DNA of 64,000 bases from Escherichia coli (lineage in GTDB: Bacteria; Pseudomonadota; Gammaproteobacteria; Enterobacterales; Enterobacteriaceae). How positions within the stretch are numbered: the stretch's first letter is position 1; every line of letters begins with the position of its first letter. The DNA is taken from assembly GCF_003790525.1 (NCBI RefSeq), contig NZ_CP033635.1. One strand, 5' to 3'. The notes under the pieces are model-generated. The model saw only the letters and a program-made list of their open reading frames with translations, did not search any database and was not told where the DNA came from. The position numbers and the translations under genes are program-made. Positions 1 through 14,509 of this stretch are shown piece by piece.

Positions 1-75
1 GGCGTAAACGCCTTATCTGGCCTACGGGAGCATTTGTAGGCCTGATAAGACGCGGCAAGCGTCGCATCAGGCTTG
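1..75. repeat. REP/BIME-like palindromic repeats (ggcgtaaacgccttatctggcctac ... gacgcggcaagcgtcgcatcaggc)
   Basis: Matches the E. coli REP consensus family (GCCKGATGCGRCG... and ...CGCCTTATCCGGCCTAC types); extragenic, downstream of ubiG. Confidence 0.75.
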
Positions 76-107
76 GCTCGGTCGTCGGATGAATCCAAAC
101 AACAACC

Positions 108-830
108 TCACTTATTCTGCGTATGCAGCATATAGTTCACATCAACGCCGGGGCCGAGCTTAAAGGAATTAGTTATAGGGTTGTAATGCAGCCCGGTCAT
201 ATGCCGTTCTTTAAGACTGGTCTGATCCACCCAGCCCAGCAATTCTGCCGGTTTAATAAACTTCTTCACATCATGTGTACCTTTAGGCACCATGCGCAAA
301 ATATATTCAGCACCAACCACCGCCATCAGCCATGACTTGCCGTTGCGGTTGAGCGTCGAGAAAAAGACATCGCCGCCCGGTTTCACCAGTTGCGCACAGG
401 CTCTGACCACTGACTGAGGATCGGGGACGTGCTCCAGCATCTCCATGCAGGTCACCACATCATACTGCCCGGCATGTTTTGCCGCGTGCTCTTCCACGGT
501 TTCCTGCACGTAATCCACCTGAATGCCGCTTTCCAGTGCGTGCAGTTTTGCCACCTGCAATGGCTCAAAGCCCATATCCAGACCGGTCACCGTCGCACCT
601 TCGCGCGCCATACTCTCGGCCAGAATGCCGCCGCCACAACCGACATCGAGCACCTTTTTGCCAAATAAACCGCCAGCACGCTCGGCAATATAGCCCAGAC
701 GCAGCGGGTTAATACGGTGCAGCGGTTTGAACTCACCTTCCAGATCCCACCAGCGGGAGGCGACGGCTTCAAATTTAGCGATCTCTTCGTGGTCTACGTT
801 ATTGTTTTTAAGGAGATTTTCAGTGTTCAT
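108..830 (-). CDS. ubiG: Bifunctional 3-demethylubiquinone-9 3-O-methyltransferase UbiG (240 aa)
   Basis: Same length as E. coli UbiG and near-identical over residues ~11-240 as I recall it; SAM-binding motif [11 protein letters not shown]; divergent from gyrA as in K-12. Confidence 0.95.
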
Positions 831-907
831 TGTTACATAAGAGTCTATAAAGGTTGTCGGGCAGTATAGCAGGTGAAAAGTGCCAGTGTTATAAACTCAT
901 TCACATT

Positions 908-1606
908 TTACTGTGTAGATAACGAGAGAATTTTTCGTGCGCGCTCGGTAAATCCACTACTTACGTGATGAGTAATAAAATTACAAACACCTTCAACGTT
1001 ATTATTTTTTAGCATATCTAAAATAGTCGCATGGCCACGATTTGAATTGGTGATATATTCCGTAGTGAAATCCAGTCGATAACGGATAGCAAGTAAACGT
1101 GCGGATATCAATTGGTGTGCCTGAGAGATGTATTTATTATCAGCGTATTTAACAAACACATAATGAAAATCATGATCCAGTTTAAGATAAGCCTGAGTAT
1201 CGCGCTCGGCATTAATTTTTGCTGATTTTGATAGTATACTATTTAGTTCAATGATGACATTGTTTGCATTCTTTTCCATTGCTTCACTAATTGCACCCTG
1301 CTCCAGAATTACTCGCATTTTTATGAGGTCATTAATATCTTTATCTGTTACGGAAAAAACGAATGTTCCGCTGCGTGGAATGATATTGATCAGATTTTCA
1401 TTGTGACTAAGTAAAATAAAAGCTTCACGAATAGGTGTTTTACTTACCGCCAGAATATTCGAAAGTTCATTTTCACTTATCGGTTGCCCAAGACTGAGAT
1501 CGCCATGAATTATCATATCCCTGATTTTTTCTTTGATGACCTGTGTTACGGATTTTGGTATCTCAATTGATATGTGACTTAAGTCACGTTTCGCTTTATC
1601 TCTCAT
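908..1606 (-). CDS. GntR-family (FadR/FCD-type) transcriptional regulator, 232 aa
   Basis: N-terminal winged-HTH typical of GntR (ENELSNILAVSKTPIREAF) with a C-terminal helical FCD-like domain; strongly AT-rich codon usage; no equivalent between ubiG and gyrA in K-12 as I recall. Confidence 0.7.
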   Translation of the reverse strand: MRDKAKRDLSHISIEIPKSVTQVIKEKIRDMIIHGDLSLGQPISENELSNILAVSKTPIREAFILLSHNENLINIIPRSGTFVFSVTDKDINDLIKMRVILEQGAISEAMEKNANNVIIELNSILSKSAKINAERDTQAYLKLDHDFHYVFVKYADNKYISQAHQLISARLLAIRYRLDFTTEYITNSNRGHATILDMLKNNNVEGVCNFITHHVSSGFTERARKILSLSTQ

Positions 1607-1670
1607 TCCTTTGCCCCTTATTAAGCTGCTGGTCCATTATATGTAATCATTTTATCAATGAAGGTATCTA

Positions 1671-1753
1671 ATATATCAGATATGACAAAAATGATATATC
1701 TTATTGTTGTAGCTTAGTGTTTCAATCAATGATCAAGCTGATATATCAGATAT
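1671..1753. promoter_or_regulatory. Divergent promoter region with two exact 13-bp direct repeats ATATATCAGATAT (1671-1683 and 1741-1753); candidate operator for the adjacent GntR regulator
   Basis: Exact 13-mer repeated 70 bp apart, with extended ~20-bp similarity (ctaatatatcagatatgaca / ctgatatatcagatataaca), lying between the divergently oriented regulator and transporter genes. Confidence 0.4.
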
Positions 1754-1843
1754 AACACATCACCTTTTGAACTGGATTATTTTTTACGTAATATCCACTT
1801 CGGGCAGTACTCTTATTCATTGAACCACAAAAGGTGAAACAAA

Positions 1844-3172
1844 ATGAGCAGTCCTCAGAAAGATTTGTATGAAGCCATTTCTATTGTGAAAAGGAAGATT
1901 ATTCCGTTAGCATTTATTCTGTATTTTTTTAACTATATGGATCGTGTTAACATCGGATTTGCCGCTTTACGCATGAATGAATCCCTTGGTATTACACCAG
2001 AGGATTTTGCTAATATATCTTCAATATTTTTTGTGTCCTATTTGATTTTTCAAATTCCGAGCAGTATTGGATTGCAAAAGTTAGGTGCAAGAAAATGGAT
2101 TAGCGCCATTATTGTTGGTTGGGGAACAGTAACAACGTTAATTTTCTTTGCCAAAGACACCCAGCATATATTGCTCGCTCGGGTCTTTTTGGGAATATTT
2201 GAAGCGGGGTTTTTCCCTGGCATGGTTTACTACCTGGCATGTTGGTTCCCGGCGCGTGAACGTGGAAAAGTGAATAGCTTTTTTATGTTATCAATCGCAG
2301 TTGCATCTGTGCTGGCGGCACCAATGTCTGGTTGGATTATTGAACATATGAATACCGGTAACTATGAAGGATGGCGCTGGCTTTTTGCTATTGAAGGCAT
2401 TCCTACGGTGTTATTGGGGGCGCTGACCTTTTATTTACTGCCAGATCGTCCGGAAAAAGCCCGCTGGCTTACACCATCGCAAGTCACCGCATTGGTCGAT
2501 AAACTTAATTCTGATAACGAAAAAGCCGCAGCATTAAATAAAAATACAAATGCATCTTTTCTGTCAATCATTAAAAATCCAGTATTACTACAACTCTCAT
2601 TTGCTTATATGTTTATTCAGGCAGCGGCGTTGGCGGCAAATTACTGGTTACCGGGGTTGGTTAAAGGATTTTCATCGGATTTCACAGATACCGATGTCGG
2701 TTTGATTATGAGTATTCCGTTTATTTTCGCGATGTTCAGTATGCCATTATGGGGATGGCATTCCGATAAAAAGAATGAAAGGAAATGGCATGCCGCACTA
2801 CCGATGTTGGTTGCAGGTTGCGGTTTTTTAATGATCGCACTTGTACCTTCGATGACGCTGCGCATGATGGGATTAACATTATACGGTGTAGGCATTCTCA
2901 GTTATTACGGTCCGTACTGGGCTTTACCCTCAGCTTTACTTTCACCATCAGGCCTGGCAATCAGTATTGCGTTTATTAACTCTTGTTCAAGTTTGGGTGG
3001 TTTTCTGATCAATAAATCACTTGGCTATGTTTCTACACATTATGGAGCCACGGGGATATTTATTGTTGAGGCGATTCTTTGCTTTATCGCCGTAGCTATT
3101 TTGTTATCAATGAAAATTGATAATAAAAAAGATAACGCCCAGAAAGACAATGTTATTTCACATGCTAAATAA
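1844..3172 (+). CDS. MFS transporter, anion:cation symporter (ACS) family, sugar-acid permease-like (DgoT/ExuT/GudP-like), 442 aa
   Basis: About 12 predicted hydrophobic segments; N-terminal ACS-type motif NYMDRVNIGFA; AT-rich codon usage. Confidence 0.75.
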   Translation: MSSPQKDLYEAISIVKRKIIPLAFILYFFNYMDRVNIGFAALRMNESLGITPEDFANISSIFFVSYLIFQIPSSIGLQKLGARKWISAIIVGWGTVTTLIFFAKDTQHILLARVFLGIFEAGFFPGMVYYLACWFPARERGKVNSFFMLSIAVASVLAAPMSGWIIEHMNTGNYEGWRWLFAIEGIPTVLLGALTFYLLPDRPEKARWLTPSQVTALVDKLNSDNEKAAALNKNTNASFLSIIKNPVLLQLSFAYMFIQAAALAANYWLPGLVKGFSSDFTDTDVGLIMSIPFIFAMFSMPLWGWHSDKKNERKWHAALPMLVAGCGFLMIALVPSMTLRMMGLTLYGVGILSYYGPYWALPSALLSPSGLAISIAFINSCSSLGGFLINKSLGYVSTHYGATGIFIVEAILCFIAVAILLSMKIDNKKDNAQKDNVISHAK

Positions 3173-3184
3173 ATGAGGTTATTT

Positions 3185-4387
3185 ATGAAGATTACATCTG
3201 TAGAAATTTTTGACTGCGAACTCAAAAAAAGAGATCAAACTATGGCCTCTTATAATCCAGTACTTATTCGGGTTAATACCGATGCTGGAATAAGTGGTGT
3301 TGGCGAAGTAGGATTAGCCTATGGTGCAGGTGCAAAATCTGGTGTTGGTATTATCAGAGATTTAGCCCCTCTCATCATTGGTGAAGATCCGTTGAACATT
3401 GAGAAGATTTGGGAATTCCTCTTCAGGAAAACATTTTGGGGAATGGGCGGTGGTAATGTTTTTTACGCAGGTATGAGCGCTATTGATATTGCCTTATGGG
3501 ATATTAAAGGTAAATATTTAAACGTGCCGGTTTATCAACTACTGGGGGGAAAGACTAACGATAAATTGAGAACTTACGCCAGTCAGTTACAATTTGGTTG
3601 GGGCGAAAAAAGGCAAATATTAGTAACGCCTGAAGAGTATGCAGAGGCAGCGCGTGCCGCTATTGCAGAAGGTTATAATGCGATAAAAGTTGATCCGCTT
3701 GAAATCGATCTGCATGGCGGCGATTGTGTCTTTCAGAACAAAAATAGAAATTACTCTGGCTTATTACTGGCCGAACAATTAAAAATGGGCGAGGCAAGAA
3801 TTGCCGCTATGCGTGAAGCAATGGGCGACGATGCTGATATTATTGTAGAGATTCATTCTCTTCTAGGAACAAATTCAGCGATCCAGTTTGCCAAAGCAAT
3901 AGAGAAATATCGTATTTTTCTCTATGAGGAGCCAATTCATCCATTAAATTCGGATAATATGCAGAAAGTTGCCCGTTCAACATCGATTCCGATAGCAACA
4001 GGTGAGCGTTCTTATACTCGCTGGGGATATCGTGATTTACTGGAAAAACAATCAATTGCGGTAGCTCAACCTGATTTGTGTCTTTGTGGTGGCATTACAG
4101 AGGGAAAGAAAATTTGTGATTATGCCAATATATATGACACAACCGTTCAGGTACATGTTTGTGGCGGGCCTGTTTCAACAGTAGCGGCGCTGCATATGGA
4201 AACTGCAATACCTAACTTTATTATTCATGAACATCATACCAATGCGATGAAAGCATGTATTCGGGAACTTTGTACTTACGATTATCAACCCGAGAATGGC
4301 TATTATGTCGCGCCAGAGTTGCCTGGGCTTGGTCAGGAATTAAACGATGAAATCGTACAACAATATCTTGCCTATGTGATCAAATAA
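3185..4387 (+). CDS. Enolase-superfamily (mandelate racemase/muconate lactonizing enzyme-like) acid-sugar dehydratase, ~400 aa
   Basis: N-terminal capping-domain and barrel motifs typical of the MR/MLE superfamily (AIDIALWDIKGK, PVYQLLGG, later EEP and HxxE-type regions); the ATG at 3185 follows a GAGG Shine-Dalgarno; an alternative ATG at 3173 abuts the transporter stop. Confidence 0.7.
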   Translation: MKITSVEIFDCELKKRDQTMASYNPVLIRVNTDAGISGVGEVGLAYGAGAKSGVGIIRDLAPLIIGEDPLNIEKIWEFLFRKTFWGMGGGNVFYAGMSAIDIALWDIKGKYLNVPVYQLLGGKTNDKLRTYASQLQFGWGEKRQILVTPEEYAEAARAAIAEGYNAIKVDPLEIDLHGGDCVFQNKNRNYSGLLLAEQLKMGEARIAAMREAMGDDADIIVEIHSLLGTNSAIQFAKAIEKYRIFLYEEPIHPLNSDNMQKVARSTSIPIATGERSYTRWGYRDLLEKQSIAVAQPDLCLCGGITEGKKICDYANIYDTTVQVHVCGGPVSTVAALHMETAIPNFIIHEHHTNAMKACIRELCTYDYQPENGYYVAPELPGLGQELNDEIVQQYLAYVIK

Positions 4388-4414
4388 CGGCGATTTATAT
4401 ACTCTAAATAATTC

Positions 4415-4675
4415 GAGTTGCAGGAAGGCGACAAGCGAGTGACAAATTCGTCAGGAACGAATTTGCCCAGCCGCAGGCTGGCCTTCGGTGAGAGACATGG
4501 ATGTCTCTCATTAATCCCCAGGAGCTTACATAAGTAAGTGACTGGGGTGAGCGACAAATCCGCATGGAGCGGATTTGAACGCTGCTTGCAGCGGCCCCGT
4601 AAGGGGTGAGGTCCATGGATGGGCCGAATAACCCGCAGACGCAGCACATGCAACTTGAAGTATGACGAGTATAGC
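4415..4675. repeat. ERIC (enterobacterial repetitive intergenic consensus / IRU) element, long form with internal insertions
   Basis: Contains the ERIC core aatccccaggagcttacataagtaagtgactggggtgagcg and characteristic ends (gagttgcaggaaggcg ... acatgcaacttgaagtatgacgagtata); the ORFs called here (4372-4653, 4404-4649, 4619-4855) are taken as spurious. Confidence 0.8.
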
Positions 4676-4833
4676 CATTATTTCTGGTGTTTATTGAGGC
4701 ACAGGAAGCGTGTTGCGGTCTTTGTTCCTTTGTCGTTCACCGCCAGCGCGATGTGTGCTGGCGGTGGGGTAAAACGCAGTAGATCTACAGCGCCCGGAAG
4801 CCTGCATTACGTTTACCCGTCCGCAAGCGATTG

Positions 4834-4842
4834 TGTTATAAT
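4834..4842 (+). promoter_or_regulatory. Candidate gyrA promoter extended -10 element (TGtTATAAT)
   Basis: TGn + TATAAT hexamer about 45 bp upstream of the gyrA ATG. Confidence 0.5.
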
Positions 4843-4886
4843 CTCCGACCTTTGAATCCGGGATACAGTAGAGGGATAGCGGTTAG

Positions 4887-7514
4887 ATGAGCGACCTTGC
4901 GAGAGAAATTACACCGGTCAACATTGAGGAAGAGCTGAAGAGCTCCTATCTGGATTATGCGATGTCGGTCATTGTTGGCCGTGCGCTGCCGGATGTCCGA
5001 GATGGCCTGAAGCCGGTACACCGTCGCGTACTTTACGCCATGAACGTACTAGGCAATGACTGGAACAAAGCCTATAAAAAATCTGCCCGTGTCGTTGGTG
5101 ACGTAATCGGTAAATACCATCCCCATGGTGACTTGGCGGTTTATAACACGATCGTCCGTATGGCGCAGCCATTCTCGCTGCGTTACATGCTGGTAGACGG
5201 TCAGGGTAACTTCGGTTCCATCGACGGCGACTCTGCGGCGGCAATGCGTTATACGGAAATCCGTCTGGCGAAAATTGCCCATGAACTGATGGCCGATCTC
5301 GAAAAAGAGACGGTCGATTTCGTTGATAACTATGACGGCACGGAAAAAATTCCGGACGTCATGCCAACCAAAATTCCTAACCTGCTGGTGAACGGTTCTT
5401 CCGGTATCGCCGTAGGTATGGCAACCAACATCCCGCCGCACAACCTGACGGAAGTCATCAACGGTTGTCTGGCGTATATCGATGATGAAGACATCAGCAT
5501 TGAAGGGCTGATGGAACACATCCCGGGGCCGGACTTCCCGACGGCGGCAATCATTAACGGTCGTCGCGGTATTGAAGAAGCTTACCGTACCGGTCGTGGC
5601 AAGGTGTATATCCGCGCCCGTGCGGAAGTGGAAGTTGACGCCAAAACCGGGCGTGAAACCATTATCGTCCACGAAATTCCGTATCAGGTGAACAAAGCTC
5701 GCCTGATCGAAAAAATTGCGGAACTGGTAAAAGAAAAACGCGTGGAAGGTATCAGCGCGCTGCGTGACGAGTCTGACAAAGACGGTATGCGCATCGTGAT
5801 TGAAGTGAAACGCGATGCGGTCGGTGAAGTGGTGCTCAACAACCTCTATTCCCAGACCCAGTTGCAGGTTTCTTTCGGTATTAACATGGTGGCATTGCAC
5901 CATGGTCAGCCGAAGATCATGAACCTGAAAGACATCATCGCGGCGTTTGTTCGTCACCGCCGTGAAGTGGTGACCCGTCGTACTATTTTCGAACTGCGTA
6001 AAGCGCGCGATCGTGCTCATATCCTTGAAGCATTAGCCGTCGCGCTGGCAAACATTGACCCGATCATCGAACTGATCCGTCATGCGCCGACGCCTGCAGA
6101 AGCGAAAACGGCGCTGGTTGCTAATCCGTGGCAGCTGGGCAACGTTGCCGCGATGCTGGAACGAGCCGGCGACGATGCTGCGCGTCCGGAATGGCTGGAG
6201 CCAGAGTTCGGCGTGCGTGACGGTCTGTACTACCTGACCGAACAGCAAGCTCAGGCGATTCTGGATCTGCGTTTGCAGAAACTGACCGGCCTTGAGCACG
6301 AAAAACTGCTCGACGAATACAAAGAGCTGCTGGATCAGATCGCGGAACTGTTGCGTATTCTTGGTAGCGCCGATCGTCTGATGGAAGTGATCCGCGAAGA
6401 GCTGGAGCTGGTTCGTGAACAGTTCGGTGACAAACGTCGTACTGAAATCACCGCCAACAGCGCAGACATCAACCTGGAAGATCTGATCACCCAGGAAGAT
6501 GTGGTCGTGACGCTCTCTCACCAGGGCTACGTTAAATATCAGCCGCTTTCTGAATACGAAGCGCAGCGTCGTGGCGGGAAAGGTAAATCTGCCGCACGTA
6601 TTAAAGAAGAAGACTTTATCGACCGACTGCTGGTGGCGAATACCCACGACCATATTCTGTGCTTCTCCAGCCGTGGTCGCGTCTATTCGATGAAGGTTTA
6701 CCAGTTGCCAGAAGCTACTCGTGGCGCGCGCGGTCGTCCGATCGTCAACCTGCTGCCGCTGGAGCAGGACGAACGTATCACCGCGATCCTGCCGGTGACC
6801 GAGTTTGAAGAAGGCGTGAAAGTCTTCATGGCCACCGCTAACGGGACCGTGAAGAAAACCGTCCTCACCGAATTCAACCGTCTGCGTACCGCCGGTAAAG
6901 TGGCGATCAAACTGGTTGATGGCGATGAGCTGATCGGCGTTGACCTGACCAGCGGCGAAGATGAAGTAATGCTGTTCTCCGCCGAAGGTAAAGTGGTGCG
7001 CTTTAAAGAGTCTTCTGTCCGTGCGATGGGCTGCAACACCACCGGTGTTCGCGGTATTCGTTTAGGCGAAGGCGATAAAGTCGTCTCTCTGATCGTACCT
7101 CGTGGTGATGGCGCAATCCTCACCGCAACGCAGAACGGTTATGGTAAACGTACCGCAGTGGCGGAATACCCAACCAAGTCGCGTGCGACGAAAGGGGTTA
7201 TCTCCATCAAGGTTACCGAACGTAACGGTTTAGTGGTTGGCGCGGTGCAGGTAGATGACTGCGACCAGATCATGATGATCACCGATGCCGGTACGCTGGT
7301 ACGTACTCGCGTTTCAGAAATCAGCATCGTGGGCCGTAACACCCAGGGCGTGATCCTCATCCGTACTGCGGAAGATGAAAACGTAGTGGGTCTGCAACGT
7401 GTTGCTGAACCGGTTGACGAGGAAGATCTGGATACCATCGACGGCAGTGCCGCGGAAGGGGACGATGAAATCGCTCCGGAAGTGGACGTTGACGACGAGC
7501 CAGAAGAAGAATAA
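4887..7514 (+). CDS. gyrA: DNA gyrase subunit A (875 aa) carrying QRDR substitutions S83L (TTG, 5133-5135) and D87N (AAC, 5145-5147)
   Basis: Full-length match to E. coli GyrA; QRDR reads [15 protein letters not shown] where wild type is HPHGDSAVYDTIVRM; catalytic Tyr122 context AMRYTE is intact. Confidence 0.97.
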
Positions 7515-7534
7515 TTTTACGTCTTCATGCCAAA

Positions 7535-7556
7535 AGGGAGATATCTCCCTTGTTTG
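7535..7556 (+). terminator. Rho-independent terminator candidate downstream of gyrA
   Basis: Perfect 16-bp palindrome AGGGAGATATCTCCCT followed by a T-rich tract. Confidence 0.55.
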
Positions 7557-7662
7557 AATTGAAAAGTCCAGGCTGCAAAGTCTGGGCTTTTGTCGTATTA
7601 GGGCGCGGTAAAGTTTTGCTGTGCTCGTAAAAAATGGCTGGCTTTACACAAGGAATGTGGCA

Positions 7663-14509
<6,847 letters not shown>

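Follow-up and report, generated by a model that had tools for sequence, protein, structure and literature searches.

Accessory loci of Escherichia coli can be gained by homologous recombination in conserved flanking genes, with a piece of the flank hitch-hiking along, as in the mosaics around the O-antigen rfb/gnd genes and at indel hotspots. Here we describe a locus of this kind between ubiG and gyrA, found in a 64,000-nt stretch of E. coli DNA (contig NZ_CP033635.1), which as a whole is referred to as the window. The locus resembles rfb/gnd-type mosaics in its presence or absence at a fixed position, in the sharp boundaries inside the flanking genes, and in having neither an integrase nor att sites. 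In contrast to those mosaics, the hitch-hiking flank amounts to a mere 28 nt of coding sequence and nevertheless rewrites an N-terminus and two promoters.

The closest described arrangement is the gyrA-STM2273-STM2274-STM2275-ubiG locus of Salmonella enterica, with which the window shares genes, order, orientation, position and low GC (36–43%), as well as an identical ubiG −10 region and identical ubiG coding bases 1–14. The two loci differ in UbiG codons 5–10, which are completely unlike (EKPSVAH in Salmonella, ENLLKNN in the window), and in the spacer between the dehydratase gene and gyrA, which bears an ERIC element in the window. Our literature search returned neither a description of the locus nor a functional paper, and only incidental mentions of STM2273–STM2275: the respective papers name STM2275 as a transcriptional regulator (PMC3293720), STM2274 as an MFS transporter (PMC8538453) and STM2273 as a dehydratase (PMC5183578).

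UbiG itself is known from structures of the K-12 protein (4KDC, 4KDR and 5DPM). The product encoded in the window (RefSeq protein WP_001091058.1) is clearly the same enzyme, with 97% identity to K-12 UbiG and a score of 303 bits against the TIGR01983 equivalog profile (cut-off 103), which covers residues 16–234. It departs from the K-12 protein at residues 3, 5–8 and 10 and in the substitutions I211M and T222S, and the gene also has a different promoter and 5′ UTR.

The 5′ end of ubiG

The first-pass annotation of the window had proposed that about ten N-terminal codons of ubiG differ from K-12 while the rest is near-identical. The K-12 start that it gave was correct, as MG1655 (NC_000913.3), our K-12 reference, begins with MNAEKSPVNHNVDHEE (first ten residues MNAEKSPVNH), and the N-terminus in the window is indeed different. 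The contrast that had been proposed also holds in numbers: six of residues 1–10 are changed against two of the 230 residues beyond, and mismatches to K-12 amount to 12/28 in nt 1–28 against 22/695 in the remainder of the gene (Fisher p = 2.7e-10). The differences lie at ubiG nt 6, 7, 9, 15–18, 20–23 and 28 (window 803–825), within the stretch 780–830 to which the first-pass annotation had pointed. Nucleotide alignment and 30-nt sliding windows place a sharp step at nt 28/29, with 18/30 identical positions at nt 1–30 and 30/30 from nt 31. BLAST homology to K-12 is lost at window 807/808 and regained at 4832. Coordinates of this patch and of the other features are given in Table 1.

Table 1. Features of the ubiG–gyrA region in the window, with identity to Salmonella where compared.
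Feature	Coordinates	Strand	Identity to Salmonella (nt)	Identity to Salmonella (aa)	Evidence and remarks
ubiG CDS (240 aa)	108..830	-	79.0%	90.1%	ORF; TIGR01983 profile; same coordinates in the RefSeq annotation of E. coli strain 165 (NZ_CP020509)
Divergent 5′ patch, ubiG nt 6–28, left end of the alternative block	803..825	-			12 differences fixed between carriers and non-carriers
Block-type ubiG 5′ UTR and core promoter	831..872	-	70%		55% to K-12; left flank kept in WB61
Predicted ubiG promoter, extended −10 TGCTATACT	863..871	-			Promoter scan; −35-like ATAACA at 887–892
GntR/FCD-family regulator (232 aa), orthologue of STM2275	908..1606	-	79.7%	87.1%	88% to the Salmonella protein; same position and orientation
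20-mer in the GntR gene encoding LKNNNV	993..1012	-			17/20 to ubiG nt 19–38 (window 793–812)
MFS transporter (442 aa; acid-sugar/anion:cation symporter type), orthologue of STM2274	1844..3172	+	78.8%	88.5%	Profile and Salmonella identity
Enolase-superfamily (mandelate racemase/muconate lactonizing enzyme) acid-sugar dehydratase (400 aa), orthologue of STM2273	3185..4387	+	82.4%	92.5%	Open frame from 3173
Composite ERIC repeat, within the block between the dehydratase gene and gyrA	4390..4675	.			Multi-copy matches in nearly all E. coli genomes
Right flank of the block	4786..4845	+	64%		57% to K-12; gyrA −10 TATAAT at 4837–4842
gyrA, conserved right-hand anchor of the exchange	4887..7514	+	85.9%	91.1%	ORF; 57 nt differences from K-12, evenly spread

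A second mosaic boundary lies within ubiG at window ~417–440 (ubiG nt 390–414). From nt 29 to 413 the gene is K-12-like, with 2 differences, and from nt 414 to 723 it has 20 differences from K-12 and only 2 from the B2 strain LF82. This boundary is ordinary within-species recombination.

Beyond this region, the 64 kb contain ordinary core genes of E. coli (yfa, ato, rcs, ompC, nap and ccm), and positions in the window agree with those in E. coli strain 165 (NZ_CP020509). Only two amino acids of GyrA differ from K-12, namely S83L and D87N (window 5134–5147), the classic fluoroquinolone-resistance substitution pair. The alpha-2-macroglobulin gene yfaS (9995–14509) is one intact 4.5-kb gene in the annotation of strain 165 and a pseudogene in K-12.

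Extent and linkage of the block

In K-12 MG1655, ubiG and gyrA are divergent neighbours separated by a spacer of 146 nt. Among 5,426 complete E. coli genomes, ~5,282 have this K-12-type spacer, 142 have the ubiG 5′ end seen in the window, and 140 carry the three-gene cluster (2.6% of complete genomes), which was always chromosomal and always located between ubiG and gyrA. The locus is thus a presence/absence polymorphism at one fixed core position. In all 59 of the carrier rows sampled, the alignment begins at window 808. The carriers include the phylogroup F strains CE10, which belongs to ST62 (PMC11537424), and IAI39. Copies of the block differ by up to ~2% among E. coli, and in one carrier, TH9F11 (NZ_CP054191), an IS5 element within the cluster splits the dehydratase gene.

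Fine-scale linkage was followed with BLAST counts and in seven strains, comprising four carriers (the window, CFSAN061771, CE10 and SI-NP020) and three non-carriers (K-12, LF82 and INSC1002). All four carriers, and none of the three non-carriers, have the same 12 changes at ubiG nt 6–28. The carriers are mutually different at many ubiG sites after nt 28, yet their 12 patch changes are identical. Across the seven strains, no site beyond nt 28 is fixed between carriers and non-carriers, and at nt 90 all four combinations of allele and cluster state are present. Given that no site after nt 28 separates the two groups, we place a homologous-recombination boundary at nt 28/29. On the gyrA side, fixed differences occur at −57, −56, −44 and −42, with none nearer to gyrA or inside it.

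The outermost fixed differences are thus ubiG nt 28 on one side (window 803) and, on the other, the position 42 nt before gyrA (window 4845); together they delimit an inseparable block of 4,043 nt in place of 133 nt of K-12. At ubiG nt 28/29 and at gyrA −42 alike, identity steps abruptly between species-level and divergent values, and sequence outside window 803–4845 reassorts freely with respect to the cluster.

Ancestral form of the spacer

Outgroups, which were placed by sequence distance only, resemble K-12 in this region. A divergent Escherichia-like genome that lies beyond E. coli diversity (gyrA 94.4% and ubiG 93.2% to K-12) matches the K-12 spacer at 143 of 146 nt. A second outgroup enterobacterium (ubiG 81% and gyrA 85% to K-12) also has a 146-nt spacer, which aligns with that of K-12 free of gaps, and in a third the layout is unchanged apart from 13 additional bases. 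We compared three flank segments, namely ubiG nt 1–28, the region upstream of ubiG, and the region outward of gyrA −42. K-12 is 82–100% identical to the outgroups in these segments, and the gap-free outgroup spacer is 82–85% identical to K-12 where the block is 55–66% identical. The block flanks themselves are 64–70% identical to Salmonella and 55–66% to K-12; ubiG nt 1–28 is a tie (66% to each), and the two upstream segments favour Salmonella.

Given that the K-12-type spacer occurs both in the divergent Escherichia genome and in another genus, the short spacer is best read as the native ancestral Escherichia form. Judged from these alignments, the K-12-type spacer is ancestral in the recipient lineage, and the block is an alternative form distantly related to the Salmonella arrangement.

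The first-pass annotation had suggested a recombination junction, or a replacement of the ubiG 5′ end, beside inserted DNA. The complete linkage of patch and cluster in every genome examined bears this out, as do the lack of fixed sites past nt 28, the four combinations at nt 90, the ancestral state of the K-12 spacer and the grouping of the divergent flanks with the Salmonella locus. The proposal needs refining in that the replaced segment extends past the ubiG start: it also takes in the ubiG 5′ UTR and the extended −10 promoter of ubiG as well as, on the far side, ~60 nt in front of gyrA.

The gene cluster and its Salmonella counterpart

The cluster comprises a GntR regulator gene and, divergently oriented, genes for an MFS transporter and an acid-sugar dehydratase. 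In Salmonella contigs, the gene order is gyrA, dehydratase, MFS, GntR and ubiG, as in the window and with the orientations unchanged, and a single collinear alignment to the Salmonella locus spans window 121–4386 at 79.5% identity. Genes, order, orientation, neighbours and a core-like divergence all identify the three genes as orthologues of STM2273–STM2275. Cluster genes are as far from Salmonella as core genes are (cluster 78.8–82.4% nt, ubiG 79.0%), and their GC content is 36–41% in the window and 38–43% in Salmonella. With a nucleotide identity of only 79–82%, the cluster is not a recent transfer from S. enterica. Another enterobacterium has a 72–73% identical copy of the three genes in a different context, which indicates that the module moved between loci at some point.

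The MFS transporter matched the D-galactonate transporter subfamily (E = 4e-80), below the cut-off. The best profile match of the dehydratase was galactonate dehydratase, with 249 bits against a cut-off of 311, and its scores fell below every equivalog cut-off.

Several genomes in RefSeq have the GntR gene annotated as a frameshifted pseudogene of 743 nt (908–1650). However, the 232-aa frame from 1606 and a 231-aa homologue can be aligned along their full length, the first codon of this frame corresponds to the Met that is conserved in the Salmonella protein, and GenBank lists it as a normal 232-aa protein; the pseudogene call is probably due to an over-long reference. In some S. enterica, the GntR allele lacks 63 residues in frame, over the end of the helix-turn-helix domain, and FCD is the sole domain detected in it. 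The divergent intergenic region between the GntR and MFS genes has repeated or palindromic motifs, CTAATATATCAGATATGACA and CTGATATATCAGATATAACA, at window 1665–1687 and 1738–1757, which are candidate operator sites for the GntR regulator.

Origin of the block

We consider it quite probable that the unusual ubiG N-terminus is the left end of a ~4-kb haplotype block that was imported through its conserved flanks by homologous recombination. Most likely, the block would have entered the ancestor of the carrier lineages, phylogroup F included, with the highly conserved bodies of ubiG and gyrA as anchors for recombination. The donor would have belonged to the Salmonella side of the family, in a lineage other than S. 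enterica itself. Later recombination among E. coli would then have swapped the remaining donor flank for native sequence up to the points where similarity collapses, which are nt 28/29 in ubiG and position −42 before gyrA. Trimming that proceeds only to such a collapse of similarity would account for the knife-sharp boundary. Both block ends fall in near-invariant sequence, namely ubiG from nt 29 and the gyrA leader, the latter without any difference between E. coli, Salmonella and the outgroups. The junction seen today is probably where later trimming stopped, and not necessarily the original crossover point. Sharp boundaries, linkage inside them and reassortment outside are a pattern that we observed directly, and it is from this pattern that we infer the process.

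The first-pass annotation had called the inserted DNA an island, which is apt insofar as DNA was inserted but does not extend to a classical mobile island. ORFs, profiles and annotation show three genes only in the block, with no integrase or recombinase; a tRNA search of window 1–9000 found none; and the repeat search returned no direct repeats that pair the two block ends. Given this lack of integrase, tRNA and flanking direct repeats, the block is not a site-specific integrative island. The event type is well known, and the locus is a fresh example of ordinary mosaic evolution.

A donor with a near-identical block was not found among 5.8 billion proteins, where the nearest GntR relatives outside E. 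coli were the Salmonella protein (88% aa) and another homologue (72%). Scans of genomes from 100,044 species with the GntR protein, both as a single sequence and as an alignment, returned no relative, which is a weak negative result given that even Salmonella was missed.

Codons 5–10 and a repeat in the GntR gene

In ubiG nt 1–14, the block is identical to Salmonella and K-12 differs at 3 positions. In nt 15–28, the block is unlike K-12 and Salmonella both: it matches Salmonella at only 2 of 14 positions, whereas K-12 matches Salmonella at 9 of 14. With so little identity to Salmonella, this stretch needs an extra explanation beyond import. Among 120 enterobacterial UbiG cluster representatives, residues 3–10 take ~50 different forms, and ENLLKNN was found in no other genus and only in one truncated Logan entry (230 aa, 95% identical to the query).

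A possible addition to the import, compatible with it but rather improbable in our view, is that nt 15–28 were written by a templated event, either ectopic conversion or template switching, with the LKNNNV-encoding stretch of the GntR gene as the template. The GntR 20-mer (Table 1) and ubiG nt 19–38 (codons 7–13) lie 200 nt apart on the same strand, with the GntR copy upstream, and both encode LKNNNV. The 17/20 match was absent from 100 shuffles of the 64-kb window, ranked as the top direct repeat in an independent repeat search, and had p = 0.004–0.01 for an equally good match anywhere in the island when the 16 block-specific bases of the patch were shuffled. Moreover, six of the nine block-specific changes in nt 15–28 move toward the GntR sequence, and the motif is conserved in the GntR gene of Salmonella, so that GntR would be the source. 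On the other hand, the match was noticed post hoc, involves A-rich sequence of low complexity, and is imperfect, falling to 20/26 over an extended stretch. Part of the similarity is also native to ubiG (K-12 has 13/20), and the N-terminal tail is hypervariable anyway. A compensated frameshift (−1 then +1) was rejected as the source of codons 5–10, given that it would require two indels and five substitutions, passes a stop, and is no simpler than nine substitutions.

Alternative origins and loss of the cluster

Instead of an import, the two forms of the locus could be an ancient balanced or trans-species polymorphism, in which the cluster was already in place before Escherichia and Salmonella diverged and both forms were inherited vertically with no later import; ubiG nt 28/29 would still be a recombination boundary, but one between two old haplotypes. 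This would fit the match between the block–Salmonella distance and that of core genes, the lack of a closer donor in very large databases, and the divergence among block copies within E. coli, which suggests long residence in the species. We nevertheless regard it as unlikely, given that presence and absence would have to survive from the genus split to today, that the sole divergent Escherichia genome examined has the empty form, that the named members of the GntR cluster that were read are E. coli only, and that the block occurs in so few complete genomes. Slightly less likely still is that presence and absence have coexisted since about the Escherichia–Salmonella split, in which case phylogroup F would have kept its form by vertical descent, as a relic rather than an import.

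The opposite direction, with the K-12 spacer left over after an ancestral locus had lost its cluster by deletion, and the ubiG 5′ difference as the resulting scar, is suggested by the synteny with Salmonella and by a real, recent deletion of just this kind in strain WB61. Compared with the cluster-bearing strain CFSAN061771, WB61 has 2 mismatches in 11.5 kb (99.98% identity) and has lost the cluster in a clean deletion of 3,638 nt, equivalent to window 873–4785, with junctions at 872 and 4786 (WB61 locus 7001–7166). Its left junction lies 1 nt upstream of the ubiG extended −10, and its right junction is inside the near-palindrome CGCAGTAGATCTACAGCG at 4775–4792. However, WB61 retains the block-type flanks and the block-type UbiG N-terminus, so that loss of the cluster did not regenerate a K-12-type spacer, which is a further argument against a deletion as the source of the K-12 form. 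The K-12 spacer moreover aligns over 146 nt without gaps to that of another genus (82–85%) and at 98% to that of the divergent Escherichia genome. A deletion cannot recreate such a gap-free, outgroup-like spacer, and a deletion origin, contradicted by these data, thus appears highly improbable; the view drawn from Salmonella synteny was overturned by the outgroup spacers. WB61 was also considered as an unoccupied insertion site and rejected as such, being a recent deletion in a clone near-identical to CFSAN061771.

The dehydratase–gyrA spacer differs among carriers in its ERIC repeat. In the window, the repeat includes an exact ERIC2 primer site (4532–4553) and two internal insertions of ~70 and ~80 nt; in CE10 the repeat at this place is shorter, as both insertions are missing, and CFSAN061771 has no ERIC at this site. 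Given this variation, the spacer is still evolving among carriers.

We give hardly any credence to a local acceleration of point mutation, or to positive selection, acting on the UbiG N-terminus independently of recombination and of the cluster. Residues 3–10 are admittedly the most variable part of UbiG across Enterobacteriaceae, but the divergence runs unbroken into the upstream non-coding DNA and reappears upstream of gyrA, its linkage with the cluster is complete, nt 1–14 are identical to Salmonella, and a divergence of 43% is impossible at the time depth of E. coli, with synonymous sites elsewhere in ubiG at ~3%. Misassembly, sequencing error or a miscalled start codon has a negligible chance of explaining the patch, given that the identical sequence occurs in 142 independently finished genomes, and is thus no assembly quirk, and that an in-frame ATG stands at the homologous position of a protein of unchanged length with its own RefSeq entry.

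Promoters, leaders and likely effects

The import that we favour would have replaced regulatory sequence on both sides of the cluster. On the ubiG side, the −10 of the predicted promoter is common to all forms: CCTGnTATACT lies at the same distance from the ubiG ATG in K-12, Salmonella and two outgroups, and the extended −10 (TGnTATACT) stands 32–35 nt before the ATG in every form. The leader differs. K-12 and two outgroup genera have a Shine-Dalgarno-like AAGGAG or ACGGAG 11 nt upstream of the ubiG ATG, and the block-type leader (831–856) is without this motif. It has an ATG-TAA start-stop mini-frame 2 nt before the ubiG ATG; in the Salmonella leader, a frame of three codons overlaps the ubiG ATG with its TGA. 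Given the different promoter and ribosome-binding context, ubiG expression may be altered in carriers of the block.

On the gyrA side, the block-specific bases 4843 and 4845 directly follow the −10, where the window reads TATAATCTCC and K-12, Salmonella and the outgroups read TATAATTTGC. The gyrA promoter is supercoiling-sensitive, and the short region just downstream of its −10 governs relaxation-stimulated gyrA transcription.

The UbiG enzyme itself is probably unaffected by its altered N-terminus. An effect on catalysis is unlikely given that residues 3–10 are hypervariable and outside the methyltransferase domain, the TIGR01983 profile starting at residue 16.

Implications

The locus is a clean worked example of a small accessory cluster exchanged through conserved flanks, in which the exchange rewrote the N-terminus, the promoter and the ribosome-binding context of the housekeeping gene ubiG. 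Studies of ubiG and gyrA expression that were calibrated on K-12 may not transfer to carriers, and annotation pipelines as well as allele-typing schemes should expect two UbiG N-termini. The block is also a compact marker for E. coli lineages that include phylogroup F (CE10 and IAI39). Finally, the locus provides an E. coli handle on the uncharacterised STM2273–75 acid-sugar system.
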